DNA of 64,000 nucleotides from Candidatus Poriferisodalis sp. (GTDB taxonomy: Bacteria > Actinomycetota > Acidimicrobiia > Acidimicrobiales > Poriferisodalaceae), in NCBI RefSeq assembly GCF_965205175.1, contig NZ_OZ242038.1:2462627-2526626 (forward strand), given 5' to 3'. Positions within the stretch are counted from its first letter, which is position 1; each line of letters starts with the position of its first letter. Positions 8,884-59,171 of this stretch are shown here, piece by piece. The position numbers and the translations under genes were made by a program. A model generated the notes under the pieces. The model saw nothing but the letters and a program-made list of their open reading frames with translations, made no database searches and was not told the origin of the DNA.

Positions 8884-10283
8884 CGAGTCGTTCCTGACGT
8901 GAGCGCAGCGACGGTGCCGACGTGGCCGCACAGCACCCCGTCAGCGACGACGGCGTGTCCGGCAACCACGGTCGCCAGCACCAGTGCGTGCATCTGGCGG
9001 TGGAGATGTGGCGTGTTGCGCGCCATGGAAGCGCTGCCGCGTGCAGCCGGCGTCCACGGCCGGTCGAGATCGATCACCACCAGGTTCGCCGGCTGACCGG
9101 GCTCAATCGCGCCTCCGCCGAGGTGAGCTGCACCCGCCAGTGCCGCGGGCCGCCACGCTAGCGCATCCAGCGCCGTCAACAGAGGGATGTCGGGGTGGTC
9201 CAGCACGATGGCCGCACAGGTCTCCAGCGCTGCGACGCCTGGCGGTGCTTGTTCGAATGGCAGGTCTTTCGCCTGAGGCGGCACGGGCGAGTGACCGCTG
9301 ACCACCGCGTCGATGGTGCGGTCGTTCACGCCGGCGACGAGCGCGTCACGGTCATGCGCGGTGCGGTAGGGCGGATCGGCTCGCAGCAGCGTGTCGTAGC
9401 CCTCTGCGTCGGCATCGACGAACAGCAGGTGCTCGGCGGCGACCGATGCGGAGATGTCAATGCCTTCCGCCTTGGCTGCGCGCACCAGCTCGACCGTGCG
9501 GGCAGCGCTGATGCGATCCAGGTGCAGCCGCCCGTCGGTCATCCGTGCAGCACCGATGGCGGCGGCCGCCGCCAGCTCTTCGGAGGCAGCGGGCTCGCCG
9601 GCGAGACCCATGCGCGCAGAGACGGCGCCTTCGGCCATCGCCGCACCGCCTCCGAGCTGCGAGCAAGCCGGTCGCACCGACACCGTCGCGCCCAGCGGTC
9701 CGGCGTACTGCAAGGCGCGACGGAGCAGGCCGGCGTGCGCCAGCGGACCGACGTCGGTGAACCAGCGGACGCCGGCATCGGCCAGCTCCGCCATGGGCGA
9801 CAGCCGGTGCCCTGCCCGATCGGCGCTGATCGTGGCGGCGGCGAGGACCGAGCAGCGCCCGCCGGTCGCTCGGTGGCGCAGCTGCGCCAGCTCGCCCAGC
9901 CGGTCGAGGGGGGGATCGGTGTCCGGCTGTGCGAGCACCGCCGTGAATCCGCCGAGCGCTGCGGCTGCCGTGGCGGTGGCGACGGTCTCGGCTTCCTCGT
10001 TGCCCGGCTCGCCGAGGCGGCAGAACAGGTCGACCAGACCGGAGCTCACCACGCAGCCCGCCGCGTCGATCACCGTGCCGGCACAGCGCGCAGCAGCTTC
10101 AGCGGTGTCGTCGTCTTGCGCGGCGGCGCTGCCGCGCTCAGTCGCGGACGGCGTCACTGCAGCGATCCGACCGTCGATCACGGCGATGTCGGCTCGGCGT
10201 CGGCCGGAGCGCTCGACGATCTCGCCGCCGGCGATCACCAGCGGAGCGCCTGTGCCCGGCGCGTGCGCCGCCGTCTCAGCCAT
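8880..10283 (-). CDS. pyrC: Dihydroorotase-like protein with a degenerate metal/catalytic site (PyrC'-type, probably non-catalytic)
   Basis: Clear type I DHOase fold and the expected pyrB-pyrC-carA position. My by-eye alignment against the Bacillus subtilis PyrC sequence as I recall it shows most of the signature motifs replaced (see finding). Confidence 0.85.
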   Translation of the reverse strand: MAETAAHAPGTGAPLVIAGGEIVERSGRRRADIAVIDGRIAAVTPSATERGSAAAQDDDTAEAAARCAGTVIDAAGCVVSSGLVDLFCRLGEPGNEEAETVATATAAAALGGFTAVLAQPDTDPPLDRLGELAQLRHRATGGRCSVLAAATISADRAGHRLSPMAELADAGVRWFTDVGPLAHAGLLRRALQYAGPLGATVSVRPACSQLGGGAAMAEGAVSARMGLAGEPAASEELAAAAAIGAARMTDGRLHLDRISAARTVELVRAAKAEGIDISASVAAEHLLFVDADAEGYDTLLRADPPYRTAHDRDALVAGVNDRTIDAVVSGHSPVPPQAKDLPFEQAPPGVAALETCAAIVLDHPDIPLLTALDALAWRPAALAGAAHLGGGAIEPGQPANLVVIDLDRPWTPAARGSASMARNTPHLHRQMHALVLATVVAGHAVVADGVLCGHVGTVAALTSGTTR

Positions 10284-44295: not shown

Positions 44296-45933
44296 CTAGC
44301 CGTTGGTGCGGGCAGGCTCGGGGGCGGTGAACGCGAAGTCGTCGCCGTCGCATTGTTCGAGCTTTGCTTCGAGTGCGTCTTGCTCAACGGTGTCGATGGC
44401 GAGATCCCAGCGTGTCTTGACCGCGATCCAGTCCACTGCGTACTGGCAGTGGTACTCATCGTTGGGCGGCCACCACTCTCCCGGGTCGCGTGCGCCCTTG
44501 CTGCGATTGGTGGAATAGCTGACGGCGATGAGCGCCCGCGGATCGCCAAGGTCGTTGCCGAAGCGCTTCCACCTGTCCTCAGACCAAGCGTGGCCGCCGG
44601 AATCCCAAGCTTCCGCCAGCGGCACGAGGTGGTCGATGTCGAGCTGTGAAGCGGTCTCGACCACGGTGTTGTCGTAGGCGGAGTACCAGCTGCCGTCGGG
44701 CAGCTGCTCGTCGGCGAGGACATGCTGCCGCGTGGTCTTGCCGCCGCTGCGGCGCCAATCGCCGAACACCGCGTCTCGGTTGTATCCGCTGCGCATCTCC
44801 GCTTCGACCCGCAGACGCTCGAACAAGCCGATCACGCTGCGGCGGCGTTCGAGGTCGGCAGCTTCGGCTTCCGGGTCGCGAACCGACGCATCGGGGAACG
44901 TGACCGGCGGCAGCACCGTCGTCGCCACGGAGGTCGTCGGTGCAGCGGACTCGTCGCCGTTGTCGTCCCGCAGCAGCCTGAGGCCGCGCTCGGCGAGAAA
45001 CTCCAGCACTTCGGTGCCGGGGATGGCAATGCCGAGCGTGCCCCCCTCGCCCTCGTAGCCGCCGGTGGGCACCCCGACCAGGCGACCGGTCGCGTCGAAC
45101 ATCGCTCCACCGCTGACACCCGAGTCCAGCAGTGCATCGACTTTTAGCTGCCGGTGACCCGCAGGACTGACACTGGTGCCCGAGAAGGTGCCGCTGGTCA
45201 GCGTGAGCGTCTGCTGGCTCTGGCCGAAGCCCGGATAGCCCAAGATCGTGATCTGTGCCCCCAACGCCAGATCGTCCCGCTCGACCTGAAGCGGTGGAGC
45301 GGAGCAGAGCCCCGCTGCGGACAGACGCAGCACCGCTAGGTCCCGAGCCGAGTCGTCGGCTTCGAGTTCGGCTGGCTGCCAGCAGTCCGGCGGATCCTCG
45401 AAGCGCTGTGCGAACCCGATGACGACATCGCAGACCGCGCCATCGGTCTCGGACCGCACGACGTGCGAGTTCGTCAACGCGAATCCGCCGTCGCCGACGA
45501 CGATGCCCGAGCCGGCCTGGTCGCACCCCTCGGAGTAGACCTGTACCACCGACCGCGCAAGCCGCTCCCAGTCGGGCACCTCTTCGTCGGTGACGGCCGG
45601 TGTCCCGGGAACAGTGACGGCCGGCGCCTCGTCGGGCGGCGGGTCATCGCTGGGAGCGCTCTCGTCGTCCGGTCCGCCCAGCACCGTCGGCGCCGTCGGC
45701 GCTTCGCTTCCGGCGTTTGCGGGTCCGTCTGCCGGCGCATCAGGCTCGTCGCGTGGCAGTGAGGTGTCCGCAACGCTCGTCGCGACCGGAGTCGCTTCGT
45801 CACGCGACGCAGGCTCGGCACCAGCGGTGTCGCTGTCGTCTTCTAGAAGGGCGCCGGCGAAAGCGACCACCACCAACAGTGAGGCCAGCGCGCCCAGACC
45901 AGCGAGTACCGGCTTGCGCTTTGCCCAAGCCAT
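44296..45933 (-). CDS. Membrane-anchored trypsin-like serine protease fused to a DUF1524-type (His-Me finger) nuclease domain
   Basis: 545 aa. TM LAGLGALASLLVVVAFAGALL. Protease triad contexts LTNSHVV, DLAVLRL and DSGVSGGAMF. C-terminal nuclease motif LDIDHLVPLAEAWDSGGHAWS...NDLGDPRALIAVSYSTNRSKGARDPGEWWPP. Confidence 0.8.
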   Translation of the reverse strand: MAWAKRKPVLAGLGALASLLVVVAFAGALLEDDSDTAGAEPASRDEATPVATSVADTSLPRDEPDAPADGPANAGSEAPTAPTVLGGPDDESAPSDDPPPDEAPAVTVPGTPAVTDEEVPDWERLARSVVQVYSEGCDQAGSGIVVGDGGFALTNSHVVRSETDGAVCDVVIGFAQRFEDPPDCWQPAELEADDSARDLAVLRLSAAGLCSAPPLQVERDDLALGAQITILGYPGFGQSQQTLTLTSGTFSGTSVSPAGHRQLKVDALLDSGVSGGAMFDATGRLVGVPTGGYEGEGGTLGIAIPGTEVLEFLAERGLRLLRDDNGDESAAPTTSVATTVLPPVTFPDASVRDPEAEAADLERRRSVIGLFERLRVEAEMRSGYNRDAVFGDWRRSGGKTTRQHVLADEQLPDGSWYSAYDNTVVETASQLDIDHLVPLAEAWDSGGHAWSEDRWKRFGNDLGDPRALIAVSYSTNRSKGARDPGEWWPPNDEYHCQYAVDWIAVKTRWDLAIDTVEQDALEAKLEQCDGDDFAFTAPEPARTNG

Positions 45934-46474: not shown

Positions 46475-49400
46475 TCACATCAGCAGCGCTGCAGGCGCCT
46501 CGGCGCTGTCGGACGAGGCCGCATCGTCATCGGCGGCTGCGTCAAGTCGCGCGAGCGACGTCAGACGTTTGAGATCAACAGGTTCGGAGATGTCCACCCG
46601 CACTGCATGGAACAGCACCGTGCCATGCGCTCGCAGGTCGCGGCAACGATGCTCCGCCGGGGCCTCGCCTTCTGGCATCGCGACCGCTTCGGGCCACCAC
46701 ACCCGCGACTCGTACTCGGGCGGGGCCTCGATGCTCGGCGGCAGCGTGCCCGACGGCAGCCGCTTCTCCCCTGCCGGCAGCAGCTCTCCCAGCAGCTGTG
46801 GCAGCGTTTGGCGGCCGGTGCCGCTGCGGCCCAGCGACACGGTGATCCGATCTGACATGAAGGTCTTGGCCATCGCCCGGTTCAGCGCGTCCAGTGCGGT
46901 CTCGTGCAGCAGCGGGTCGAATTCGCCGGAGTACACACGCTGGGCGAAACGCCAGCGCGGCCCAGTGCCCTCGCCGCGCAGCACGGAGTCCAGCGGCATC
47001 GGATAGGCATCGTGCTCCGGCGGCGGCATGAAGCCGTCGGCGCCGATGCCGAATCTGGTCCGTTCGCTGCTGACGAACCGCGACGACATTCGGCGGTATT
47101 GCTCGCGCAGCCAGCCACTCGGTGCCAGCTCCGGCAACAGCTCGCCCAGAAAGGCGTCCCGTGTCTCATCGGTCAGCTGGAGGTCGAACATCAGCAGTTT
47201 GCGGACTGCCGGGGTCGGGTCCTGGGGAGGTGCTGCGGCGTGGTGCGAACCGAAGGGACGGTGCAGCAGCCGGGCGACTACTGCTGCTGTGGTCAGCCAG
47301 TGAGCCTTGAGCGTCTCCAGCGCTGCGGTGCGTGCCGCCGCCGCCTCGCACTCGTCGACCAACTCGTCGATGCGGTCCCGCCAAGCGCTCACCTGTTGCC
47401 GGTCGCGTCGGCGAATGAGCAACACCAGTCCGCCCGTGGCGACTGCCACGGCCACGGCAACGGTCAACAGCACGGTCAGCAGCCGCCAGCTGCGGTCTTC
47501 GAAGATCGTCGGGGCCGTAGCATCAAAGTTGAGCCCCGCGACGGCAATGACGAACGCGTAGACGAAGGGCACCGCTCCGGCCACACGATCCCCCACCAGT
47601 GCTGCCAGCGGACCAAGCAGGCCTCTGTCGCCGGCGAATCCGCTGTCGCCGGCGAATCCGCGGACCCAGGCTGCGATCGCCAACGCCATCACGCTTGACA
47701 CCACCGTGATGGCAGGCATCCACTGGCCCGGCCGGCTGAGCCAGCTCTGCTCGATGGCCGATGCCGCTACCACCGTCACGGCTGCGGTCCCGGCGTAGAC
47801 CGCCGCCACTAGCGTGAGGCGAATCTGTGCGGACCAGCTGCGACTCGGCGTCAGCCGAAGCATCGGCGGCACGGTGGCCGCCAGCGACAGCAGCAAGAAC
47901 GAAGTGATTCTCTGATCCTCGGAGAGCCGGTCAGGCGTGAACACCTCGCGCAGCTCGGTCAAGGTCAACAACGAGCCGGCGCCGATCAGCACCGAAGCCA
48001 GCAAGGCATAGGCGACGAACGAGGTGACCCCCGGCTCGGGCCGGGTCTTCGGGTCGATGTGCTGCTGCAAGAGGCCGATGTGATGCTCGACGTCTCGTTC
48101 GGAGCGCTCGATCTCCTCGTCGAACTGGCGCGTCACTTCTGCGAGCAGCGTCGGCTCGTCTTGCCAGCCCGAGTCGCCAGCATCCGCAAGCGGCAATGTG
48201 CCCGATTCATCGTCTGATTCGTCGTTGTCGGGAGGGTCATCACCCTGCGCATCGCCGGAGCCCGAGTCTGGCGCTGCGGTGTTGATGCTGGCGCCGTCAG
48301 CCGCCGAAGACAGGTGCGCGTTCGGGTCGAGCATGGCAACGGCCTGCGTCAGCTCGTCGGCATCGGGCGCCAGCGCATCGGGGTCGACGACCACATAGCG
48401 GGCGCCGGCGATCTCGTCTCGCACATGGTCAGCGCCCGATGCCGCGTCCGCCATGCCGAACACACCGTCGAGCAGCGCGTCCCAGCCGTCGGTCGGCACA
48501 CGTTCGATGGAGACCGGCGGGCGGCCAGCGTCCAGCAGTTGCTTGGCCTTCTGTCGAACACTTGACGACATGCTGCTGGTGTCGTCGAAATCGTCTGTGC
48601 CTTCGACGAGCGGTGCAGTCCACGGCGCAACCTGCGCAGTCTGTTTGACGTAGTCGTCAAGTCTCGATGCGGCTTGTGCCACGTCCTGATCGCGCTCGAG
48701 CGCGCTACTGATCGTCTCACTGGCGAGACGGCGTGCGCTGGCGGTCTGCGACAGCGGCATCAAGCTGCGCACCTCGCTGTAGGGCGTAGCTGCGGCCCCG
48801 TCAACTGCGTTGGCTTCGTGCAGGCTGCCGTCTGACATGTCGGCTGGCACGCGATAATCCCGCGGATAGATGTACGGCGCAGCAGCCCGAACGGTGTACG
48901 CAGGATCGGGGGCGGGCAGCTGCCCGGGTGTCAGCGGCAACAGCCCCGTGCCGTCTAGCGACTGCTCCGGCGACGGCGTGTGGATACGAGCGGCACGGCA
49001 CATCGAGCGCACCAGCCGAACCAAGGGTCTGCCTACACCGCTCACGGCGCTTGGAACGAACTCGACCGGTGCGCCGTCCATGGTCGACCAGAAACCAGCT
49101 AGGGAGGCAACTTCGACGGCCACGTGCCACGCGTAGACCTCGTCATGGCTTGCATCGTCAGGTTCTCCGTCCCCCACAGGCATCGCTGCTGCGCGTTCGA
49201 ACTGCCGATCCGACGGCAGCACCACCAGAGCGCTGTTGGCCTCAGGGCTGGCAAAATCCTCGCCGGGCACGAGCCCGTCATCGCCGTAACGAGGCACCCA
49301 TACCCGGTGTGAAGCGACTCGGGTGTGCTCTGGCATGATCCGTTGCAGGTCGTGCCGCAGCATTCGGTCCGCCCGCGCTAGTTCGACCTGCTGTGTCGGG

Positions 49401-49780
49401 CCGAGGTCGGCTGTACAGACAGTCACGATGTCAACCCGGCTCAGCGCACCTTGACCGTGCAGCTCGTACATCAGCCCCACCGACCGCCATTCGCCCGCAT
49501 GGAGCAGACGCGAAGAACGCCCAAGGTCCGGTGGTGCCGGATCGTCACTTACGGGCGCACAGCACTCCACGCACATGATCGGCGACAGCTGCAACGCCGC
49601 CGACAGGCCCGTCCAGACATCAAGCGCCGACACCATAGCTCCGTCGTCAGCGCGGTAGAGCACAATCGCAACGCCCTTCGTCCCATCTGCCGCACGAGAA
49701 GCGAAAGACAGATCCGTCTTACTGCTATCCTCGTGTTCCTCCGCCCCAACGGAGGCAATACTCATATCAGTAGCTCTCAT
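46475..49780 (-). CDS. 1101-aa polytopic membrane protein of unknown function (last gene of the vWA/tubulin-like operon)
   Basis: ATG at 49780, 4 nt after the stop of the upstream gene. Soluble N-terminal ~600 aa, then a central cluster of hydrophobic helices (VAYALLASVLIGAGSLL, FLLLSLAATVPPML, LTLVAAVYAGTAAVTVVAA, ITVVSSVMALAIAAWV, VPFVYAFVIAVAGL, LLTVLLTVAVAVAVATGGLVLLI), then a soluble C-terminal ~300 aa. I recognise no domain. Confidence 0.75.
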   Translation of the reverse strand: MRATDMSIASVGAEEHEDSSKTDLSFASRAADGTKGVAIVLYRADDGAMVSALDVWTGLSAALQLSPIMCVECCAPVSDDPAPPDLGRSSRLLHAGEWRSVGLMYELHGQGALSRVDIVTVCTADLGPTQQVELARADRMLRHDLQRIMPEHTRVASHRVWVPRYGDDGLVPGEDFASPEANSALVVLPSDRQFERAAAMPVGDGEPDDASHDEVYAWHVAVEVASLAGFWSTMDGAPVEFVPSAVSGVGRPLVRLVRSMCRAARIHTPSPEQSLDGTGLLPLTPGQLPAPDPAYTVRAAAPYIYPRDYRVPADMSDGSLHEANAVDGAAATPYSEVRSLMPLSQTASARRLASETISSALERDQDVAQAASRLDDYVKQTAQVAPWTAPLVEGTDDFDDTSSMSSSVRQKAKQLLDAGRPPVSIERVPTDGWDALLDGVFGMADAASGADHVRDEIAGARYVVVDPDALAPDADELTQAVAMLDPNAHLSSAADGASINTAAPDSGSGDAQGDDPPDNDESDDESGTLPLADAGDSGWQDEPTLLAEVTRQFDEEIERSERDVEHHIGLLQQHIDPKTRPEPGVTSFVAYALLASVLIGAGSLLTLTELREVFTPDRLSEDQRITSFLLLSLAATVPPMLRLTPSRSWSAQIRLTLVAAVYAGTAAVTVVAASAIEQSWLSRPGQWMPAITVVSSVMALAIAAWVRGFAGDSGFAGDRGLLGPLAALVGDRVAGAVPFVYAFVIAVAGLNFDATAPTIFEDRSWRLLTVLLTVAVAVAVATGGLVLLIRRRDRQQVSAWRDRIDELVDECEAAAARTAALETLKAHWLTTAAVVARLLHRPFGSHHAAAPPQDPTPAVRKLLMFDLQLTDETRDAFLGELLPELAPSGWLREQYRRMSSRFVSSERTRFGIGADGFMPPPEHDAYPMPLDSVLRGEGTGPRWRFAQRVYSGEFDPLLHETALDALNRAMAKTFMSDRITVSLGRSGTGRQTLPQLLGELLPAGEKRLPSGTLPPSIEAPPEYESRVWWPEAVAMPEGEAPAEHRCRDLRAHGTVLFHAVRVDISEPVDLKRLTSLARLDAAADDDAASSDSAEAPAALLM

Positions 49781-49784
49781 CGGT

Positions 49785-52700
49785 CTATGCTTGAGCGCGC
49801 GTTTCGGCAGCCTGCATTATGTCTTCGAGTGCCGGTCTCATATGGCGCTGCCACAATCCCGTCCACTGTGGAGCATCAGAGAGTAGCGCCGGTTCGTTCC
49901 TCCAATCATCACGAAGCTTGGTGAATTTGTCGTCGTAAATGCGCATCAATTTGCGACACTCCTCCGCGACATGACTCGCGCGCCATTCCGGCGAAACAAC
50001 AACGCTGTCCGATTCAGCATCAAGCCAAGCCCGGCATTTCGTACCAGCATCTATCTGGCCAAGCTCCACATACCGCAATAGTGACGCATTCAAGCGCTTG
50101 TATGCAAACAACTCCTGCACGAGTGACCCATCAACTCGGCTAGACACCGCCGCGCGTCCAAGATCTCTCAGCTCAATGTACGGTACAAGCGGACCCGGAT
50201 CCGCCTGTCGATTTACTTCCAAGTAAGACAAGGCGAGCGCTTCTAGAGTCAGCGGCAACGCATCATCATCACCTTCGGCGCTCGACGTTGATAAGCACCC
50301 GGCTGAAAACAATTCATAGGCTTTCCGTTTCGAGATCCAGATTTCCCACATACGCTGTTCGACATCGAACCGTATCTGACCTAGCAACCGACCTGTGAAC
50401 CAACCTCGCGTCATGCATCGAATCAGTGCCTGCGGTGCCGGTACGAAAGATTCTAATGGTTGAGCGCGACGATATTGCCAAAAGTTCTGGCGTTCCATCG
50501 AGGTACTACATTCAGCCCATCGTGCTACAATCGGTCGTAACAGTGAATCGACGACAAGCACCGAGATTGGCGGGTCGAGGATCGTCGTGATGTCGATGTC
50601 CTTTAGCGACCAATCATTTCCTAACGCTTCCTTAGCGACCTGGCTGTCGACTCCCCAGTTCTTTAGTGCTGCCAACACCTCATCTTGGACCACACTGCCA
50701 GCAAACGGAATCTCGGAAAGGTAGATCTTCGGGCGAACATTAGTCGCCTGTGCCGGTTGAACTTTACCCAACAGTTGCTGGTCAACGCTGACCAGAGGTG
50801 CAGCGCCTGCCATCGCAGCACCGAGTTGACCCATGACGCGTGATTGCCTCTGCGTTACGTTCGCAAAATTCGCCGCCGCTAGTACAGCACTATTGCCATC
50901 TCCGCCGTCCACAAATTCTCGAAGTGAGCAATTGATAAGACGTTCCCATACCGAGCCGGTGTCCCGTAGTCGATGATGGGCCCTCTTCTCAAGAGCATCG
51001 ATACGCGTCATGATCGTCACCGACAGCGAAGAAGGTGGGCCATCCATTAACGCCCTATCTAGCGAAGGCAGTTCCGGATTCCAGTCCTGCTGAATATACA
51101 CACAGGAACGCCAGTCATGGTGCTGTAGCTGAGATCCGTCCTTGAAAAAACAACCGGTGATGACATCGCTCCTGATCTTTTCGCGCTGGGCCGAAGTTGT
51201 TGTTGCCAGTCCGATATCACGCGCCAACAACTCATAAAATATGTCCGAATAGTGTGCGGGATCAATTAGCGAATAATCGCCCTTAGGTGGTCGCTCGCTG
51301 TCAGCCGGTGCAGCACCGTCCCAAGCTGGCCAAGCGTTTGTCTGCCGAAAATCCTGATCTAGGTCATCAGCTGCGGCACGTAACGCATTCGCCAAGGGCC
51401 GCAGAATGCCTTTTGCGATTTGTTCGGCCAAGTCAGCCGCCCGTTGGCCGAGTAAAGCGGCGCCGTCAAATTGGGCAAGATAAACGCCTTGTCTTATGGC
51501 TTCAGCAAGGCGCCGGTCGTTAGCACCAATTTTCCCTTTGATGTTAACCAACACCTGTGTGACTTCAGTGCCAACTGTGCTAGCCCACGCTTCGCGGCGC
51601 GAAGCCTCAGTACGCAGGGTGTGAACGTCATGAAACAGCTTATCAGCGATTGCATCAGACAGTTTCGCGGTCAAGCGTAAGCCGTAAAGGCCGATACAAC
51701 GTTCGATTTCATCAAGTATCTGCGTTTGAATGATGCCGCGGCAAGCCATCGTCGAGGTATCGAGTTCATTACGATAATCCAACAAATACTTGTTCTTCGC
51801 CGCATCGATTGCAGCGACAATCTGCTCTTTCCATTGTGTCGCTTTCAGTTTCACAGTGGCATCACCATCGACTCCTGAGTTGCTTCGAACCGACCGCTCT
51901 AGTTCATCATCCAGTCGGCGAACTGGTTGCAGCTGACGAATGATCTGATGGTTCTCGAATTTGGTACCAGCGAGTCCGGTGACAGACAGGACACTTGTTA
52001 GCAGTAGCTCTGACATGGCATTCAAGATTTGGTCCGGGTGCTGACTCTTTAGCTTTTGGCCGGTCTGCGTCGCAAGATGAGAATCCGTATGAAACTTGGT
52101 TAGATGCCGAACTGCCTCGCGCACAAGACGCCGCTTAGCGAAGAGCCCAAAGTAATGACCACCGACTGACAGACGAGAGAAGCCAACAGCAGATATACAC
52201 GGCGGGCCAACTTCGTAGGGCTTGCCAAGGTTAACCAATACTTCGCCTGCGCTTGCATTAGCCTTTGCAGCTGTTTGATCCCAGTTTGTCAACGTGTATC
52301 CACTGATGTGATTCCAGACGGTGTTATCTGTCACCCACGACAACATGGCACGCGCGGCGATCTCAAATACGCGTTCGGGCGTGCCATGGTCAACATTCCC
52401 TGATGACCTTCGGCCCACCAAGAAAGGATACTGAGGGCCGCTTCTCTTTTGCGGCTTCGGCAGCCCGATTTTGCTTAGTAGCGGGTTTGTCTTTGGTTCC
52501 GGGAGACCAGTAGCCTGTTTGACGCTTCCGTGCCACCATTGTCCGTTCAACATCTCGCAAATGGCGGCGAAACTGTTGGGGTAGACTCCTTCAGTTTGCG
52601 CGACATTCACAGCTTCGAACACTTCTGGAGTGTAGAGCAGTGCAACGATGCGCTCAGCAGCCGGCGTATTCATCGCTCGCAGCACGTCACAGACGGTCGT

Positions 52701-53276
52701 CAAGAGGCCAGAACCAGCGCCACCTGCTAATGAACCAACAACAATTATTGACATCACGGGTGCTTTGGTTGACCCGGCGAATAGTCCAGGATTAGCGTTC
52801 GCAGAAAGCTGAACCAGCTGGGCTTGAGCTTCAGGTCCAGTCATATCCTGAATTTTGGCTCTCAAGGAGTTGTGGATCGTCCGCGCGTACGCTAGCGCCA
52901 CAGAGTGGCCGATAGCTCTCCACTGACCAGCGCCTTGATCAAGTTGCACTTGGACACCAGCTGGTTCTACGCGCCAGGTCCGCAATTCATCGATGATGGG
53001 GGGAGGCATGCCATCCAAGATGGTCTGCAACGACTCGAAATCCATACCGGGAGGAATGAGACCAAGATATTCATCGTCAGCAAGATTCGGTACGCGATCA
53101 TCGATTTCTTGTCCGTCAGCCTGGGTTGGTGTATCAATATGCAGAAACTGCCATGCGCTGGGGATGGAACTGCCAGGGGAACGTGACGCTAGCCACGTTG
53201 CCATTGCGTGCTTGAGAAACCGAAGTGTCTTGCCACCGGACCCGCCCAAACCAACAAACAGAAACCTATTGTACAC
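49785..53276 (-). CDS. Giant tubulin/FtsZ-like (Tubulin_2 / FtsZl-1-type) putative GTPase, 1163 aa
   Basis: N-terminus MYNRFLFVGLGGSGGKTL (T1-loop-like GxGGxG), GAGQWRAIGH, and IIVVGSLAGGAGSGLL, which resembles the tubulin/FtsZ signature GGGTGSG. About 850 further aa are mostly helical with no TM segment. GC content is markedly lower. Confidence 0.8.
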   Translation of the reverse strand: MYNRFLFVGLGGSGGKTLRFLKHAMATWLASRSPGSSIPSAWQFLHIDTPTQADGQEIDDRVPNLADDEYLGLIPPGMDFESLQTILDGMPPPIIDELRTWRVEPAGVQVQLDQGAGQWRAIGHSVALAYARTIHNSLRAKIQDMTGPEAQAQLVQLSANANPGLFAGSTKAPVMSIIVVGSLAGGAGSGLLTTVCDVLRAMNTPAAERIVALLYTPEVFEAVNVAQTEGVYPNSFAAICEMLNGQWWHGSVKQATGLPEPKTNPLLSKIGLPKPQKRSGPQYPFLVGRRSSGNVDHGTPERVFEIAARAMLSWVTDNTVWNHISGYTLTNWDQTAAKANASAGEVLVNLGKPYEVGPPCISAVGFSRLSVGGHYFGLFAKRRLVREAVRHLTKFHTDSHLATQTGQKLKSQHPDQILNAMSELLLTSVLSVTGLAGTKFENHQIIRQLQPVRRLDDELERSVRSNSGVDGDATVKLKATQWKEQIVAAIDAAKNKYLLDYRNELDTSTMACRGIIQTQILDEIERCIGLYGLRLTAKLSDAIADKLFHDVHTLRTEASRREAWASTVGTEVTQVLVNIKGKIGANDRRLAEAIRQGVYLAQFDGAALLGQRAADLAEQIAKGILRPLANALRAAADDLDQDFRQTNAWPAWDGAAPADSERPPKGDYSLIDPAHYSDIFYELLARDIGLATTTSAQREKIRSDVITGCFFKDGSQLQHHDWRSCVYIQQDWNPELPSLDRALMDGPPSSLSVTIMTRIDALEKRAHHRLRDTGSVWERLINCSLREFVDGGDGNSAVLAAANFANVTQRQSRVMGQLGAAMAGAAPLVSVDQQLLGKVQPAQATNVRPKIYLSEIPFAGSVVQDEVLAALKNWGVDSQVAKEALGNDWSLKDIDITTILDPPISVLVVDSLLRPIVARWAECSTSMERQNFWQYRRAQPLESFVPAPQALIRCMTRGWFTGRLLGQIRFDVEQRMWEIWISKRKAYELFSAGCLSTSSAEGDDDALPLTLEALALSYLEVNRQADPGPLVPYIELRDLGRAAVSSRVDGSLVQELFAYKRLNASLLRYVELGQIDAGTKCRAWLDAESDSVVVSPEWRASHVAEECRKLMRIYDDKFTKLRDDWRNEPALLSDAPQWTGLWQRHMRPALEDIMQAAETRAQA

Positions 53277-53392
53277 TTGTTATACTCGATTCTTATCTCT
53301 TTAGTTTACTTGAGAAGATTACTTATGAGTGCGCAGAGGGATGAGGAAGGCCATCGAGTCGTCGCTACTCAAGCCCGTGCCACCATATGACC

Positions 53393-56300
53393 TCAGTTTG
53401 TGGGCGACGGCGGTGGCGGCGGTGGGTCAGCGTCCATATCAGGCAGTTGCATTTTGGCGTCGCCAACGTCAGGATCACTAGCAGGACGCTGATTCATCTT
53501 GATATCAGGCTGACTGACATTGCGCACCTCGGCCGAGTCCATGATTTGCTCGAGCAAATTCGTCGCTTCAAAATTTTGGATCATTCCCATGTCACTAGCT
53601 TGTGGCAAGGCCAACCAGATGTTTGCCACGGCGGAGTTGCCGATATTGTCTGTATCTAGAATGCCCACGATCAGTAGTCGATCGAATTCCGCTGGAGCTG
53701 CCGCTACGGTCGAGCGCTTAGACTGCCTGCGGCCTTTCGGTGAAACTGCGATCACGCCATTGGCAGCTTGTACCTCGCTCCACGGTCCGCGTAGCAACCC
53801 AGGCAACCAAAATCGCGGGGAACGACGAAGCAGTACACTGATGCTGCTGGTTCCCGATTGTGATGCCGGACCCTTCCATCGCCGATAGCGAGGCTTAGTC
53901 TGGCCGACTACTCGCCCCAATATGGCTTCTCCAGGCGCTGACTGCAGCGCGGCTATAGGATCGTCTTCGAATGAGTGGGTCCGCCCGCCATTGCTGTGAA
54001 TCCTCAAGGCGGCGCGATGCCACCGGAAGGCGGCTGGATTGGGCAAGCTGAAGGTTGAGCATAGAGCCAAGCAGAAAAGCACATAGCTGACCAGCAGACT
54101 GGCGATGAGCAGCAGGATCGTGAGCCAGCGCGCCACGCCCGAATCACTGCGCGCTGCGTATGAGGCATCGACCGGCAGGTCTGCGCGTTGGTCTGCCATT
54201 TGCTCAGCAGCGAGAGTGTTGAAGGCGTCATCGTCTTGGGCGGTCTGCCACTCGAGACGCAGCCGGATGACGCCGTCGATGCTCCAGTCACCGTTGGCCA
54301 GTTCGTCAGGAGTGACGAAATACAGCCGCATTCTGCCGTCGACCAAGTCGGCATCGGCATCGAGCCGCAGTGTCAGGCCGTCCTCACTGAGGGCCCCGGC
54401 ATCAGGGCGGCCGTGCCGAGCGGAGTCGAAACGCCAATCAAGAAGTTGGTTGTCGTCTGCAGCGCCCGTGTCGGAGCTGTCAGACAGGTCAGGCTGCCAT
54501 CGCGCGGTCAGCACCGCAGTACCTGTCTCCGGCGGCGTCAGATAGCAGGCCGACTCGCCGCGCAGGGGTTCGCGGGGAAGTTCGTCTTGCGCCGGTAGGA
54601 CTTCCAGCGCGCTGACTCCGTCGGGGCCCGAATCGCAGGCAAGCGCAGGAGCACCGACGCAGTCGTACAACCGCTGGGCGGGTCCGACGACCCGAATCCG
54701 GACGTGCTCCTCTATCTGGCCAGGCCCGAACATTTCCTCGGTGAGTGGCGGTTCCCACCTGTACTCGAACGGTCGGGTGAAGTCGTACGGCTCTTGGCAC
54801 TCAAGAGGTTTCAGCTCGAATACGACTCTTCGGTCGTCAACCTCAGCGCGGTCGTCGTCCTCAGCGCGGTCGTCGTCGCGCTCGCAATACACGCGGTGTA
54901 CCCGTTCGTCGAGCCACTCGTCGGGAAGGTTGTCGCACAGGCCTTGCGGTGCAGGATTCACGATGATTCGACTGCCGTCGAGTATGGGACTCGTGACTCG
55001 ACCCGATATGCCGACCGACTCCCGATCTTCGCCGCTGTCAAAGTCGCGTCCGTCGCGCGTCGCGCCGTCTCCCCGCCCGCCGTTCTCGTCGCTGGCAGGG
55101 CCACTTCCGTCGGGCTGTTCTCCGCTCTCGCCGTTGTCAGGGCTACCCCCGTCCGGCCTCTCACCGCTCTCGTCGTCAGGTGCAGGCCCCCGCTTGGGTG
55201 CTCGAATGACGTCTTCAAGCGGCTTTTCTTCCGGTCCAGGTCCGACAGCTTCGGCATCGACGTCTTGCCGGTCGGGGATGTTGCGGAGCACGTAGCATGT
55301 GACGAGCGCACCTTCATTGCCTGCGGTCTCAATCAGCAGGCGCCAGCCGGCGGCGAGGCCGGACAGCTCCTGACTGCGAATGCGAAGTGGTTCCGTGCCG
55401 CTGCCGCTGCCGTTGATCTCGGGTACGTTGCCCGCCGGATCAATCTTGTACCCATTGATTTGCGCCCCATCACGCGGGTATGCGACGATCTCACGGATGT
55501 ACCGGCCTGCGGGCATCTCTTCTGAGAACGTTCCGGGGGCTAGGTTCGCACCGCAATCCGGCCATTCCTCTAGGTCGCGGATGGCTTGCTCCAGCTTCTC
55601 GATCAGCAGATCGGCTAAGCTTCCCAACTCGCTGCCACTGATGACTTCGCCGCGGCGGTCGGCCTGCGGGTCGTCGCTCCACTGCGCGCAGTCGATGCCG
55701 AGTGACTCCGGAAGACCGACCGGACTCGGCAGTCCTGCGTCGCCGGTCAGCGCGCGGAGTATCTGCTTGGGTGCGTCGGCCATCTCGTCCTTGGCGCCAC
55801 GCTCGTCACTCTGCTCTTGCTGACGCCGGAAATCGTCGCCGATGAGCACGGCAAACGTCTGAATGCCCGCATCCTCGTAGCGACGCTTCAGCGGACCGCA
55901 CACCTCATGCCGCAACTCCTCAGCTTCCTGCCTGAGCAACCGTTCATCCGGTGACCGCGAGGTCATCTGCCCCGTCGGGTCGTGCAAGCCGTCGGTGAAG
56001 AACAGCAGCACTTTGCACGCGTCGGCGGCACTGTCGCGCCGGAACGCCTGCTCGATCTCATTGAGCGCAGCGAGGTAGTTGGTGTGGCTGACGCGACGGC
56101 TGCCGTCCGCCCTGCGCTCGCCCAGCGAATCGTCGATCGCCTCGTCGGACGGATGCAGTGAGGTGATCTGCTCAAAGCCGGCCACCCGGGCCACACGAGT
56201 ATCGAAACGCCACAGCGACAGCCGCACCTTGCCCACCTCGGCGGCCTCGTCGTCTTGCATCGCACGGAGCTCTTCGATCAGAGCGACCAACTTGTCGCGG

Positions 56301-56584
56301 AACATCCTCAGCGCCGTGCTGCGCTGCCGGCCGGCAGGGTCGCTGCCCGATCGCGGCGCGTTCAGCGACCCCGACGCGTCCATCATCACCAACACGTCGA
56401 TGTCACTCTGATCGGGGCACGGCGTGTAGCCGCCGGACTGCGCGCCCGCGTGAGCACCGCCGGCGAGGGTCAACAACGGCGCTGCGATCAGCACAGTGCA
56501 CAGCACAGCCAGCACGCGTCGGGCGCTACGGCCACTGTGGACGCAGCTGATGGGCAGCCTGTCGGTGCGGGGCGGGTGGCTCAC
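53393..56584 (-). CDS. vWA-domain membrane protein, about 1063 aa
   Basis: I prefer the GTG at 56584 (GTGA overlap with the upstream stop); the track start is 56614. N-terminal signal/anchor RRVLAVLCTVLIAAPLLTLAGGAHA. vWA MIDAS elements VLVMMDASGS...SHTNY...VLLFFTDGLHD. Acidic low-complexity middle. TM WLTILLLIASLLVSYVLFCLALC near residue 830, then a ~220-aa tail. Confidence 0.8.
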   Translation of the reverse strand: MSHPPRTDRLPISCVHSGRSARRVLAVLCTVLIAAPLLTLAGGAHAGAQSGGYTPCPDQSDIDVLVMMDASGSLNAPRSGSDPAGRQRSTALRMFRDKLVALIEELRAMQDDEAAEVGKVRLSLWRFDTRVARVAGFEQITSLHPSDEAIDDSLGERRADGSRRVSHTNYLAALNEIEQAFRRDSAADACKVLLFFTDGLHDPTGQMTSRSPDERLLRQEAEELRHEVCGPLKRRYEDAGIQTFAVLIGDDFRRQQEQSDERGAKDEMADAPKQILRALTGDAGLPSPVGLPESLGIDCAQWSDDPQADRRGEVISGSELGSLADLLIEKLEQAIRDLEEWPDCGANLAPGTFSEEMPAGRYIREIVAYPRDGAQINGYKIDPAGNVPEINGSGSGTEPLRIRSQELSGLAAGWRLLIETAGNEGALVTCYVLRNIPDRQDVDAEAVGPGPEEKPLEDVIRAPKRGPAPDDESGERPDGGSPDNGESGEQPDGSGPASDENGGRGDGATRDGRDFDSGEDRESVGISGRVTSPILDGSRIIVNPAPQGLCDNLPDEWLDERVHRVYCERDDDRAEDDDRAEVDDRRVVFELKPLECQEPYDFTRPFEYRWEPPLTEEMFGPGQIEEHVRIRVVGPAQRLYDCVGAPALACDSGPDGVSALEVLPAQDELPREPLRGESACYLTPPETGTAVLTARWQPDLSDSSDTGAADDNQLLDWRFDSARHGRPDAGALSEDGLTLRLDADADLVDGRMRLYFVTPDELANGDWSIDGVIRLRLEWQTAQDDDAFNTLAAEQMADQRADLPVDASYAARSDSGVARWLTILLLIASLLVSYVLFCLALCSTFSLPNPAAFRWHRAALRIHSNGGRTHSFEDDPIAALQSAPGEAILGRVVGQTKPRYRRWKGPASQSGTSSISVLLRRSPRFWLPGLLRGPWSEVQAANGVIAVSPKGRRQSKRSTVAAAPAEFDRLLIVGILDTDNIGNSAVANIWLALPQASDMGMIQNFEATNLLEQIMDSAEVRNVSQPDIKMNQRPASDPDVGDAKMQLPDMDADPPPPPPSPTN

Positions 56585-56877
56585 GGCCTCGTCAGGTCCT
56601 GCGCCCAGTACCACAGGTGAAGCGCGCCGAACACCCAGCTGCCGAACGTGGCCCAGCCGACCATCTTTCGGGCGCTGGGGCGCCAGTCATTGTACCTCAG
56701 GGTGGCGCGGGCCTTGTTGTCGGCCTTCAAGAACAGGTACAGCGTCAAGATGCTGACGAAGCAGCCGATCAGGTAGCCGAGCGTGTTGAAGTCGACCTCG
56801 CGGCCGGTCGCGGCGATGCCGTACTCGACGCGTGCGCCCAGCAGGAAGCTGAGCAGGGTGCAAAGCAGCACCGCCAC
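56581..56877 (-). CDS. Small three-TM membrane protein, first gene of the operon; probably the 3' part of a longer gene split by a homopolymer frameshift
   Basis: 98-aa ORF from a GTG with no SD. Hydrophobic helices VLLCTLLSFLLGA, LGYLIGCFVSILTLYLFL and MVGWATFGSWVFGALHLWYW. See the poly-G finding. Confidence 0.6.
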   Translation of the reverse strand: MAVLLCTLLSFLLGARVEYGIAATGREVDFNTLGYLIGCFVSILTLYLFLKADNKARATLRYNDWRPSARKMVGWATFGSWVFGALHLWYWAQDLTRP

Positions 56878-56950
56878 AGTCGCAACGAAACTCGGTATCG
56901 GCGGTCCGGCTGCTTTGCCGGCCGCCGCCGGACTAAAGGGTGGCTGGTGA

Positions 56951-56963
56951 CCCCCCCCCCCCC
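56951..56963. repeat. 13-nt C homopolymer on the plus strand (G13 on the coding minus strand)
   Basis: Counted directly: tggctggtga-ccccccccccccc-aactgcg. Confidence 0.98.
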
Positions 56964-57191
56964 AACTGCGGTGGGGCCAACCCTGGCTTGGGTGGCGGAG
57001 GCGGAGGTGGCGGTCCGGCTGCCAGCGTCACCCGTGGTCCCCTCTACTAGCAGCAGCCCACGGCTGCCTCCTTGCGGGCGGCGATACTAGCGGTCGGCTC
57101 GCTCGGTCGCATCGTCTCGGCGCGCCGCATGAAGCTCGACGGCGTGCCTCGCGCCTGCAGCCCGCCGAACATGAGCCGAACATGATGCGGG

Positions 57192-57668
57192 TTGAGGCGT
57201 CGGCTCGGCGCGCGGAAAATGCCGCCGGGGGTGCTGCTGGGGGGCGGTAGCTTGCGTGACGTGGAGCACGCGCCGTCGCTCATCCTCGCCGCCACCTTCG
57301 CGTTCGGCGTGCTCGGGCTGCTCTGGCAGAACCGCGGCGCCAACGCGCGTCACGAGCGGCTCGAAGCCAAAATCGACGCTCGACGCACCGAACTCAGCAC
57401 CAAGATCGAACAGCGCACCGACTCACTGCGCACCGAGATGAACGAGGAACTGCGGCAGGTACGCCACGACATCACCGCCCAGACCGCAGTCATCTCAGAC
57501 CTAGCCCAGCGAGTGTCCCGACTCGAAGGCGCAATTTTGGGCCCGGCCGCCCCGCCGGACATCGACACCGGTTCACACGAGCAAGCCGCACCAGCGCCCG
57601 GCGGCGGCACCGCACGAGCCTCCACCGGGTCGGCGACGGACCCGCAGCAGGCCGCCAACCCGGCCTGA
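57192..57668 (+). CDS. Small membrane-anchored coiled-coil protein of unknown function, divergent from the operon; start uncertain
   Basis: TM SLILAATFAFGVLGLLW followed by the heptad-like ERLEAKIDARRTELSTKIEQRTDSLRTEMNEELRQVRHDITAQTAVISDLAQRVSRLEGAI. An internal GTG (VEHAPS...) is an alternative start. Confidence 0.45.
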   Translation: MRRRLGARKMPPGVLLGGGSLRDVEHAPSLILAATFAFGVLGLLWQNRGANARHERLEAKIDARRTELSTKIEQRTDSLRTEMNEELRQVRHDITAQTAVISDLAQRVSRLEGAILGPAAPPDIDTGSHEQAAPAPGGGTARASTGSATDPQQAANPA

Positions 57669-57893: not shown

Positions 57894-59171
57894 GTGGCAG
57901 AAGCAGCAACCTTGACCATGCCCGGCTACCGGGATCGGGTCGCCGGTGCAGAGGTGGCAGCCGCCCTGCAGCGCCGAGGCGCTGTGCTGGTGCAGGGTGC
58001 AAGGAGCACCGGCAAGACATGGACATCGCGCAATCACGCCCGTTCCGAAGCGCGCCTCGACGATCCTGACATGCTCGCTATCGCCAACACCGACCCGGAC
58101 TACTTGCTCGACCGCCCCGCTCCGCTGCTGATCGACGAGTGGCAGCATGCCCCCGCACTGTGGGACCGCATTCGCCGGGCCTGCGACGACCGGTCCGGCA
58201 CCGGACACTTCATCTTGACCGGATCTGCCCGGCCGACCGATCTCATCACCCGACACACCGGCACCGGGCGCATCTCGCGGGTGCGGATGCGGCCGATGAC
58301 GCTGAGCGAGTCAGGGGCATCGTCCGGCGAAGTGTCGCTGCGCCAATTGCTCACCGACGCCGCGCGACCTGTGGCCGAGAGCCATGCCGCGCTAACCGAC
58401 GTTGCCGATGCCGTCTGCCGAGGAGGCTGGCCGGCCAACCTCGGACTCTCCCTCTCCGACGCAATCGCTGCGGCACGGGAGTACGTGGCGGAGTCGGTTC
58501 GGGCAGACATCGAAGATGCCGTCGGGGTGCGCCACAATCCTGATGCGCTCGAACGTCTCCTCCGCCTCATTGCGCACAGCTCGGCCGCTCCGATTTCCGC
58601 CGCCAAGCTTGCACGCGACATGAACCCGGCTTCGCCGCCGGCAGCTCAGACGATCTCCTCGTACTTGGACGCTCTGGGGCGCATCTTCGTCCTCGAGGAT
58701 CTTCCGGCGTGGTCTCCGGAGCTGCGTTCAAGAGCCACAGTGCGCAAGGCGCCGAAGCGGCATCTCGTGGACCCGTCGCTGGCTGCCGTGCTGATCGGAG
58801 CGTCCGCGGATCGACTCATGGCAGATTTTTCCATGTTCGGCAGCCTGTTCGAATCGCTGGTCGTGCGCGACCTGCGGGTGTATGCGCAGCCGTTGGGGTT
58901 CAGTGCGTACCACTACCGCGATTCCGACGGCAACGAGGCCGACATGGTGCTGCAAGGGCTGGACGGCACGTGGGCCGCCTTCGAAGTCAAGCTGAACTCG
59001 GGTCCGCGCCAGATTGAGGAGGCGGCTGTGGCACTCAAGCGTCTGCGAGACAAGGTTCATCCGCGGCGAACGGGTCAGCTGGCGCTGCTCGCGGTCGTCA
59101 CCGCCGTCCGCGCGGCCTACACGCGACCAGACGGCGTGGCTGTCATTCCCATCACTGCGCTTGGCCCCTGA
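57894..59171 (+). CDS. AAA-type ATPase with a DUF4143-like C-terminal domain
   Basis: 425 aa. Walker A GARSTGKT and Walker B LLIDEWQ. The overall pattern is that of the widespread AAA_14/DUF4143 ATP-binding proteins. Confidence 0.85.
   Translation: MAEAATLTMPGYRDRVAGAEVAAALQRRGAVLVQGARSTGKTWTSRNHARSEARLDDPDMLAIANTDPDYLLDRPAPLLIDEWQHAPALWDRIRRACDDRSGTGHFILTGSARPTDLITRHTGTGRISRVRMRPMTLSESGASSGEVSLRQLLTDAARPVAESHAALTDVADAVCRGGWPANLGLSLSDAIAAAREYVAESVRADIEDAVGVRHNPDALERLLRLIAHSSAAPISAAKLARDMNPASPPAAQTISSYLDALGRIFVLEDLPAWSPELRSRATVRKAPKRHLVDPSLAAVLIGASADRLMADFSMFGSLFESLVVRDLRVYAQPLGFSAYHYRDSDGNEADMVLQGLDGTWAAFEVKLNSGPRQIEEAAVALKRLRDKVHPRRTGQLALLAVVTAVRAAYTRPDGVAVIPITALGP

Follow-up and report, generated by a model that had tools for sequence, protein, structure and literature searches.

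Does a run of 13 guanines that interrupts the first gene of an operon in Candidatus Poriferisodalis sp. constitute a reversible switch, or is it an artefact of assembly, a site of recoding or a sign of gene decay? The question is raised by a 64-kb stretch of DNA (67.6% GC), hereafter the window, in which a short proline-rich reading frame enters the G13 tract and terminates shortly behind it, the remainder of the gene continuing in the adjacent frame. The reading favoured here, to which we assign a probability of roughly 0.6, is that of a homopolymer contingency locus heading a vWA/FtsZ-like-1 (Tubulin_2) operon, which appears to have been assembled in its OFF phase. In the following, the frame yielding the full-length product is referred to as ON.

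The G tract and the gene that it divides

The G13 tract is the only homopolymer of more than seven bases in the window, the runner-up being a G7 run at position 9908, and C runs of lengths 4, 5 and 6 occur 123, 32 and 4 times, respectively. A pattern of ten consecutive G is expected 0.09 times according to dinucleotide shuffles, and its sole matches are four overlapping ones, all of which lie inside the tract. In the housekeeping genes of the window, GGG makes up 14% of the Gly codons. The length of the tract is far beyond chance.

On the minus strand, a GTG codon at 57031-57029, which is preceded just upstream and in frame by the stop codons TAG TAG, opens VTLAAGPPPPPPPPKPGLAPPQLGGGGSPATL; this reading frame reaches the tract after 23 codons and ends at the TAG at 56935-56933. 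The adjacent frame harbours a 98-aa ORF (56581..56877, minus strand), whose stop-to-stop frame extends back to a TGA at 57030-57028 and offers its first ATG, GTG or TTG at 56877. The original prediction, according to which the G13 tract splits these 32-aa and 98-aa ORFs, is thereby borne out, and every detail that it had read from the sequence proved correct. Changing the tract length in silico yields full-length products of 148, 149 and 150 aa for G9, G12 and G15, stubs of 31-33 aa with a stop five codons past the tract for G10, G13 and G16, and an aberrant product of 86-87 aa for G11 and G14. Hence, length changes of a single base toggle the gene between a full-length and a truncated product over the range from G9 to G16, and the orthologous alleles translate likewise. 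The features of the locus are compiled in Table 1.

Table 1. Features of the leader gene and the genes downstream of it, in coordinates of the window
Feature	Position	Strand	Remark
Shine-Dalgarno-like GAGGGG	57039..57044	-	7-nt spacer to the GTG start
5' gene fragment as assembled, 32 aa	56933..57031	-	GTG, Pro-rich tail, tract, 5 out-of-frame codons, TAG
Eight consecutive proline codons in the N-tail	56990..57013	-	mixed CCN; PPP in orthologues; from sequence and alignment
G13, slippage-prone homopolymer	56951..56963	-	C13 on the + strand; read directly from the sequence
ON-frame remainder of the gene	56581..56950	-	linker HQPPFSPAAAGKAAGPP and three predicted membrane helices; ends DLTRP-TGA
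TAG ending the OFF(+1) phase	56933..56935	-	spans the rare ON-frame codon pair TTT AGT
GTGA stop/start overlap of small gene and vWA gene	56581..56584	-	GTG 56584-56582, TGA 56583-56581
1063-aa secreted or membrane vWA-domain protein, second gene	53393..56584	-	MIDAS-like DASGS
1163-aa FtsZ-like-1 / Tubulin_2 protein, third gene	49785..53276	-	PF13809, E=1.9e-34, residues 6-389
1101-aa ORF without family match	46475..49780	-	4 nt downstream of the Tubulin_2 gene

A protein search with the fused G12 product as query retrieved the window's own annotated protein P0001 (96 aa; Candidatus Poriferisodalis sp., 2.8-Mb contig), which is the sole close match, together with a small family. The longest members of this family comprise 141-166 aa and cover 93% of the query, including the Pro-rich N-tail. 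They share a common layout, M-T-M-T-D-R-P-P-P-R-R ... P-P-P ... G-rich ... Q-P-P-F-R-P-x-A-A-G ... G-P-P-x-x-S-F, which is followed by the membrane domain, and the GTG start of the window copy aligns with the ATG of the orthologues. The membrane domain is highly conserved, featuring 41 invariant columns in the alignment, all 41 of which are kept in the window copy. In the N-tail, differences among orthologues fall mostly on third codon positions (3:0:7, 8:6:15 and 4:1:8 for positions 1, 2 and 3), so that this part appears to be coding, yet fast-evolving. Since the orthologues encode a fused protein of 141-166 aa, the sequence comparison strongly supports an ancestral gene that spans the G tract and is out of frame in the window. 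This had been anticipated by the original prediction and is now corroborated by the full-length homologues, the aligned start and the third-position bias of the N-tail. We also weighed a separate Pro-rich leader peptide (uORF) but discarded this reading, since in most orthologues the tail shares the reading frame of the membrane domain and the linker is conserved as protein.

The family is rare, with 40 cluster representatives at E <= 1e-3 among 1.84 billion, and no family model for the small protein was found in Pfam or NCBIfam. Hydropathy analysis reveals two strong hydrophobic segments and a third helix below the cut-off, and the AlphaFold model of the orthologue P0002 suggests three helices preceded by some 40 disordered tail residues; its confidence is low (mean pLDDT 59.8) and it was used for secondary structure only. 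The run of eight prolines would presumably require EF-P to be translated efficiently, and the CCN repeat of the N-tail could in addition vary in steps of 3 nt.

Several family members are annotated in a short form of 96-100 aa, beginning at an internal GTG (P0001, P0012, P0014, P0015, P0029 and P0030), and in several records the start is thus mis-annotated. Two sources account for this length, namely OFF alleles (L020-L022) and miscalled starts in copies that are in frame (L027); at L027:941-1500, the internal GTG was called despite a Pro-rich tail in frame with an ATG. A short call alone is therefore no evidence of a frameshift, because gene callers choose the internal GTG in the in-frame L027 too. 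A short isoform that is independent of the tract may exist. For annotation, the consequence is that the tract needs checking before the gene is called intact or broken.

Allelic variation of the tract among related loci

The DNA of orthologous loci from sponge-associated Acidimicrobiia was compared, the scans having contributed loci on three metagenome contigs, two of them redundant, and on six genome contigs. The resulting alleles are listed in Table 2. In addition, the tract is absent and the gene in frame in L027 and in two more distant Poriferisodalis genomes (L014 and L015). Homopolymers of at least 8 bases occur ten times in 143 kb of related loci, and 10 of the 10 are located at the tract site. 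Moreover, 90%-identity protein clusters differ in their number of Gly residues at this position (NGGS, NGGGS, NRGGGS, NRGGGGS).

Table 2. Tract alleles at orthologous loci and frame of the leader gene
Locus	Tract	Frame
L023, L024	G11	in frame
L025	G14	in frame
L001	G15	in frame
L012	G6	in frame
L029, L030	G5CG3	in frame
L002	G6CGGTGGG	in frame
L003-L010	G6AGGTGGG	in frame
L020, L021, L022	G12	out of frame
L013	G11, different left flank	out of frame
L026	G15 plus C	out of frame
L028	G9	out of frame
L011	G5CG6	out of frame

L020 (G12, OFF) and L024 (G11, ON) differ over 2,028 aligned nt solely by a gap of 1 nt in the tract, without any mismatch, and L020 differs from L023 by 2 mismatches in about 2.85 kb, where L020 and L023 possibly stem from the same study or sample and the independence of the compared assemblies is not established. 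Similarly, L025 (G14) and L026 (G15 plus C) are 98.8% identical. L020 and L021 are 100% identical over 3.3 kb, so that these two copies are not established as being of independent origin. Because near-identical loci differ in tract length, the tract changes faster than its surroundings. This strain-level polymorphism lies in the orthologous lineage, the species of the window being represented by one genome. The original prediction had proposed to compare the Pro-rich N-terminus and the tract length across orthologues; the former is present in them, the position of the tract is kept and its length ranges from G9 to G15, which is switch-like. The candidate phase-variable switch thus gains support from ON and OFF alleles in near-identical backgrounds and from a downstream ORF that is otherwise undamaged.

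An obvious alternative is an indel in the consensus sequence: the true tract would be G12 (or G15), the gene would be intact and G13 would be a one-base error at the hardest site of the window. Long homopolymers are the main residual class of error in long-read assemblies, and the 2.8-Mb source contig suggests a long-read metagenome assembly. Furthermore, the assembled tract exceeds an in-frame length by exactly one base, and the gene is otherwise perfectly conserved. On the other hand, the rest of the window displays no trace of indel noise, and indel errors do not appear to be common in this assembly because many ORFs of the window, 500-1160 aa long, are intact and carry domain matches over the full length. 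Assembly quality was judged by these long ORFs and domain matches, as the GC3-based gene map is too unspecific to serve as a frameshift detector. The same +1 OFF state also recurs in five other assemblies, among them ones with k141_-style contigs, and homopolymer stutter in PCR or Illumina sequencing is generally biased towards contraction, not towards +1. We therefore regard a consensus indel as a serious but unlikely explanation, with perhaps one chance in four of being right. Such an error would alter the state of this genome only, not the hypervariable nature of the site.

Conversely, the frame might be restored during expression. Slippage of RNA polymerase or of the ribosome on the G run would then give rise to both the 32-aa peptide and the full protein from G13, and a run of identical bases indeed permits perfect re-pairing after a shift of RNA polymerase or of tRNA-Gly. 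Leaky ON expression from OFF alleles would also explain why these are common. Programmed recoding sites, however, keep a fixed out-of-frame architecture across orthologues, whereas the leader gene is in frame in most orthologues, and near-identical strains differ in phase. Neither was a stimulatory RNA structure found: the fold of 56860-57060 is no more stable than shuffles (z = -0.48), and Rfam yielded no match. As the normal mode of expression, programmed recoding is unlikely, and recoding as an account of the locus is altogether improbable; leaky slippage on the G run, by the ribosome or by RNA polymerase, is possible. A regulatory RNA in the leader region was rejected as a separate candidate on account of the same fold score and missing Rfam match as well as the lack of any promoter-like match.

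A third alternative is relaxed selection, under which the leader gene would be a pseudogene decaying in host-restricted symbionts and its frameshifts would be fixed and non-adaptive. OFF alleles are frequent, as this would predict: among long-tract alleles the ratio of ON to OFF is 3:6, which is near the random expectation of 1:3 without selection for ON and also compatible with drift. When ON/OFF state is set against tract class among the DNA-verified alleles (3:6 versus 7:2), a one-sided Fisher test gives p ~0.08, which is a trend only. Moreover, L011 has lost 1 nt in an interrupted tract, and in L016 a 74-nt duplication breaks the same region. Decay is nevertheless difficult to reconcile with the state of the remaining gene, since none of the OFF alleles carries a second lesion in the downstream ORF and all of them, the window copy included, keep every invariant residue of the membrane domain. 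ON and OFF alleles also occur in identical backgrounds, uninterrupted tracts of 9-15 G persist across lineages that have diverged by about 15% in DNA, and both the out-of-frame TAG and the RTGA overlap described below are conserved. Pseudogenization hence seems very improbable.

With regard to L016 itself (L016:4035-4146; NZ_OZ240249.1, Ca. Poriferisodalis sp., 4.39 Mb), the break in the leader gene lies where tail and membrane domain meet. The 74-nt duplication is bounded by 38-nt direct repeats and represents a different route of inactivation, which could be reverted by recombination between the repeats. The same genome contains a second, C-terminally aberrant paralogue, P0013.

The out-of-frame stop, the operon and the proposed switch

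The contingency reading draws further weight from the stop codon that terminates the OFF phase. In each tract-bearing lineage, one of the two wrong frames leads to a TAG 4-5 codons past the tract, and the other one runs on for 59-73 codons. The letters T-A-G are invariant in the alignment of all tract-bearing lineages, the ON-frame codon pairs that span them being TTT AGG, TCT AGG, CGT AGG, TTT AGT and TTT AGC, so that the encoded amino acids vary. These codons are rare in the housekeeping genes of the window, where TTT accounts for 5% of the Phe codons, AGT for 3.6% of the Ser codons and AGG for 2.8% of the Arg codons. Furthermore, all five distinct long-tract OFF alleles (the window, L020-22, L013, L026 and L028) reside in the TAG phase, i.e. 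ON+1, and none of the five in the long aberrant phase, which would occur with a chance of about 1/32 if both phases were equally likely.

The leader gene is linked to the second gene of the operon by a stop/start overlap. The GTGA with which the vWA gene was said to begin is present as described, and an RTGA overlap is found in 17 of 17 loci, two divergent ones featuring ATGA and the rest GTGA. The change from GTGA to ATGA is synonymous for the upstream Pro codon and retains a start codon, and in each locus the vWA start opens a basic-then-hydrophobic N-terminus resembling a signal peptide. Stop/start overlaps of the RTGA type are a classic arrangement for translational coupling, and the conserved overlap fits such a coupling with the vWA gene. 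The invariant TAG, the shared OFF phase and the RTGA overlap suggest, but do not prove, that a clean OFF state has been selected for; for the shared phase, slippage biased towards insertion would be an explanation as well.

As to the coupled genes, the 1063-aa protein matches VWA_2 with E=0.0045 and 18 bits, which is below the 27-bit cut-off of Pfam, and the precomputed VWA_2 matches of the orthologous vWA genes are likewise weak or faint. The vWA and Tubulin_2 proteins are each 46% identical to their orthologues in L001. The 1101-aa ORF is probably the fourth gene of the operon. The cassette sits between secDF and relA-hisS-aspS, and no kinase, OmpA or GTPase partner was recognised at the operon. 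A known defence system was considered and dropped because PADLOC models match none of the core proteins (vWA, Tubulin_2 and 1101 aa).

The base composition of the operon is uneven: GC amounts to 52-55% at 49000-54500, i.e. over the Tubulin_2 gene and the 3' part of the vWA gene, and to 65-72% in the flanks and the rest of the window. In L001, the orthologous Tubulin_2 gene exhibits a normal GC content of 64-69%. The low-GC stretch looks like a mid-operon replacement by an allele from a donor of lower GC.

The contingency locus favoured here would operate as follows. A slippage-prone and evolutionarily maintained G run lies within the 5' coding region of one gene, whose product of about 149 aa is predicted to be small and membrane-bound, with three membrane helices behind a disordered N-tail rich in Pro and Gly. 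Gain or loss of one G during replication would move this gene among three phases. In the ON phase (G12, G15) the full-length protein would be made; in the clean OFF phase (G13, as assembled) translation would stop at the conserved TAG five codons past the tract; and the third phase would give rise to the aberrant product of 86-87 aa. Switching would presumably be frequent and reversible within populations. As the original prediction had suggested for the operon as a whole, the OFF phase may lower expression of vWA and FtsZl1 through lost coupling at the RTGA overlap and possibly through polarity, and the benefit might consist in population heterogeneity of a membrane or surface apparatus.

A more far-reaching version, which we entertain tentatively and with somewhat less than even confidence, is that of a purpose-built switch of this sponge-symbiotic clade of Acidimicrobiia. 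It would combine the maintained poly-G tract, a TAG placed in rare codons that gives a harmless OFF peptide of 31-33 aa, and the RTGA-coupled genes, such that slippage toggles the vWA/FtsZ-like-1 apparatus. If this version is true, a contingency locus would be on record for uncultured sponge symbionts, and its ON and OFF states would offer a natural handle on FtsZl1.

Relation to known systems and the genomic neighbourhood

Homopolymer phase variation in pathogens is textbook knowledge, and recognition of it in Mycobacterium and Streptomyces is growing. For sponge-symbiotic Acidimicrobiia, nothing of the kind was found in the literature searched, in which Poriferisodalis is unmentioned. The system is of a kind well known elsewhere; its host is unusual and the operon concerned is uncharacterised. 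In the poly-G/C contingency loci of Campylobacter jejuni, a G/C homopolymer of about 8-13 bases lies inside surface or membrane genes, close to their 5' end, and simple-sequence-repeat contingency loci are found in Neisseria and Haemophilus too; in all of them, one-base changes switch the frame and tract length differs among otherwise identical strains. The leader gene resembles the C. jejuni loci in that its G tract is intragenic and near the 5' end, shifts the reading frame ON or OFF when changed by one base and differs in length between near-identical strains. In contrast to these, its host is a 68% GC actinobacterium (Acidimicrobiia), an uncultured sponge symbiont with one such tract in 64 kb, and the putatively controlled vWA/FtsZl1 operon is no known phase-variable target.

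Closer in phylogeny is the G tract of pglX, a gene of the Pgl (BREX-type) phage defence of Streptomyces coelicolor, which switches ON and OFF at 1e-2 to 1e-4 (PMC4365076). Both tracts belong to the same phylum and are G homopolymers inside a coding region that expand and contract; pglX, however, encodes a methyltransferase of a defined defence system, whereas the gene switched here would encode a small membrane protein with three predicted helices. Reversible frameshifts in coding G/C homopolymers were also reported for Mycobacterium tuberculosis, in a study that considered tracts of 7 bp and longer and in which the glpK tract comprises 7 C (PMC10334774, 10.1101/717272). These variants likewise constitute frameshifts at a G/C homopolymer within a coding region of a high-GC actinobacterium. 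Unlike that of glpK, the present tract measures 9-15 bp, belongs to a gene that heads an operon and has a conserved out-of-frame stop behind it.

With respect to the downstream genes, operons combining vWA and FtsZ-like-1 (FtsZl1, Pfam Tubulin_2) were described by Makarova and Koonin in 2010, who proposed that they form membrane-remodelling complexes (PMC2875224). Much as in the operons portrayed there, the Tubulin_2 gene of the window adjoins a putative vWA gene with a signal-peptide-like start, membrane segments and a MIDAS-like motif, and lineage-specific membrane proteins are encoded; kinase, OmpA and GTPase partners were, in contrast, not recognised at the present locus. The passages of PMC2875224 drawn on here make no mention of phase-variable control. 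If the switch is real, the natural ON and OFF alleles could be used to probe the role of the FtsZl1 operon, a question that dates from 2010 (PMC2875224). Moreover, populations of the symbionts would be mixed, their members differing in a vWA/FtsZ-like-1 apparatus associated with the membrane or surface, and such mixtures would hint at fluctuating selection, for instance by phage or host recognition.

Further genes lie on both sides of the operon. Diverging from it on the plus strand are a 158-aa ORF (57192-57668; GC3 0.81) with a hydrophobic N-terminal segment and a DUF4143/AAA_14 ATPase (57894-59171), which matches the PADLOC candidate defence family PDC-S01 with E=6.8e-77. In L020-L026, secF is located about 260-480 nt upstream of the leader gene, and because nothing is called between the two in these loci, the 158-aa ORF and the ATPase appear to be an insertion specific to the genome of the window. 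On the other side, about 540 nt downstream of the 1101-aa gene and beside relA, a 545-aa protein (44296-45933, minus strand) constitutes a fusion of a trypsin-like protease with GmrSD_C, the C-terminal domain of a type IV restriction nuclease, and matches the protease part of PADLOC RT-Protease_XI. Finally, the divergent intergenic region upstream of the operon contains a perfect tandem duplication at 57164-57185, consisting of two copies of the 11-nt unit GCCGAACATGA.
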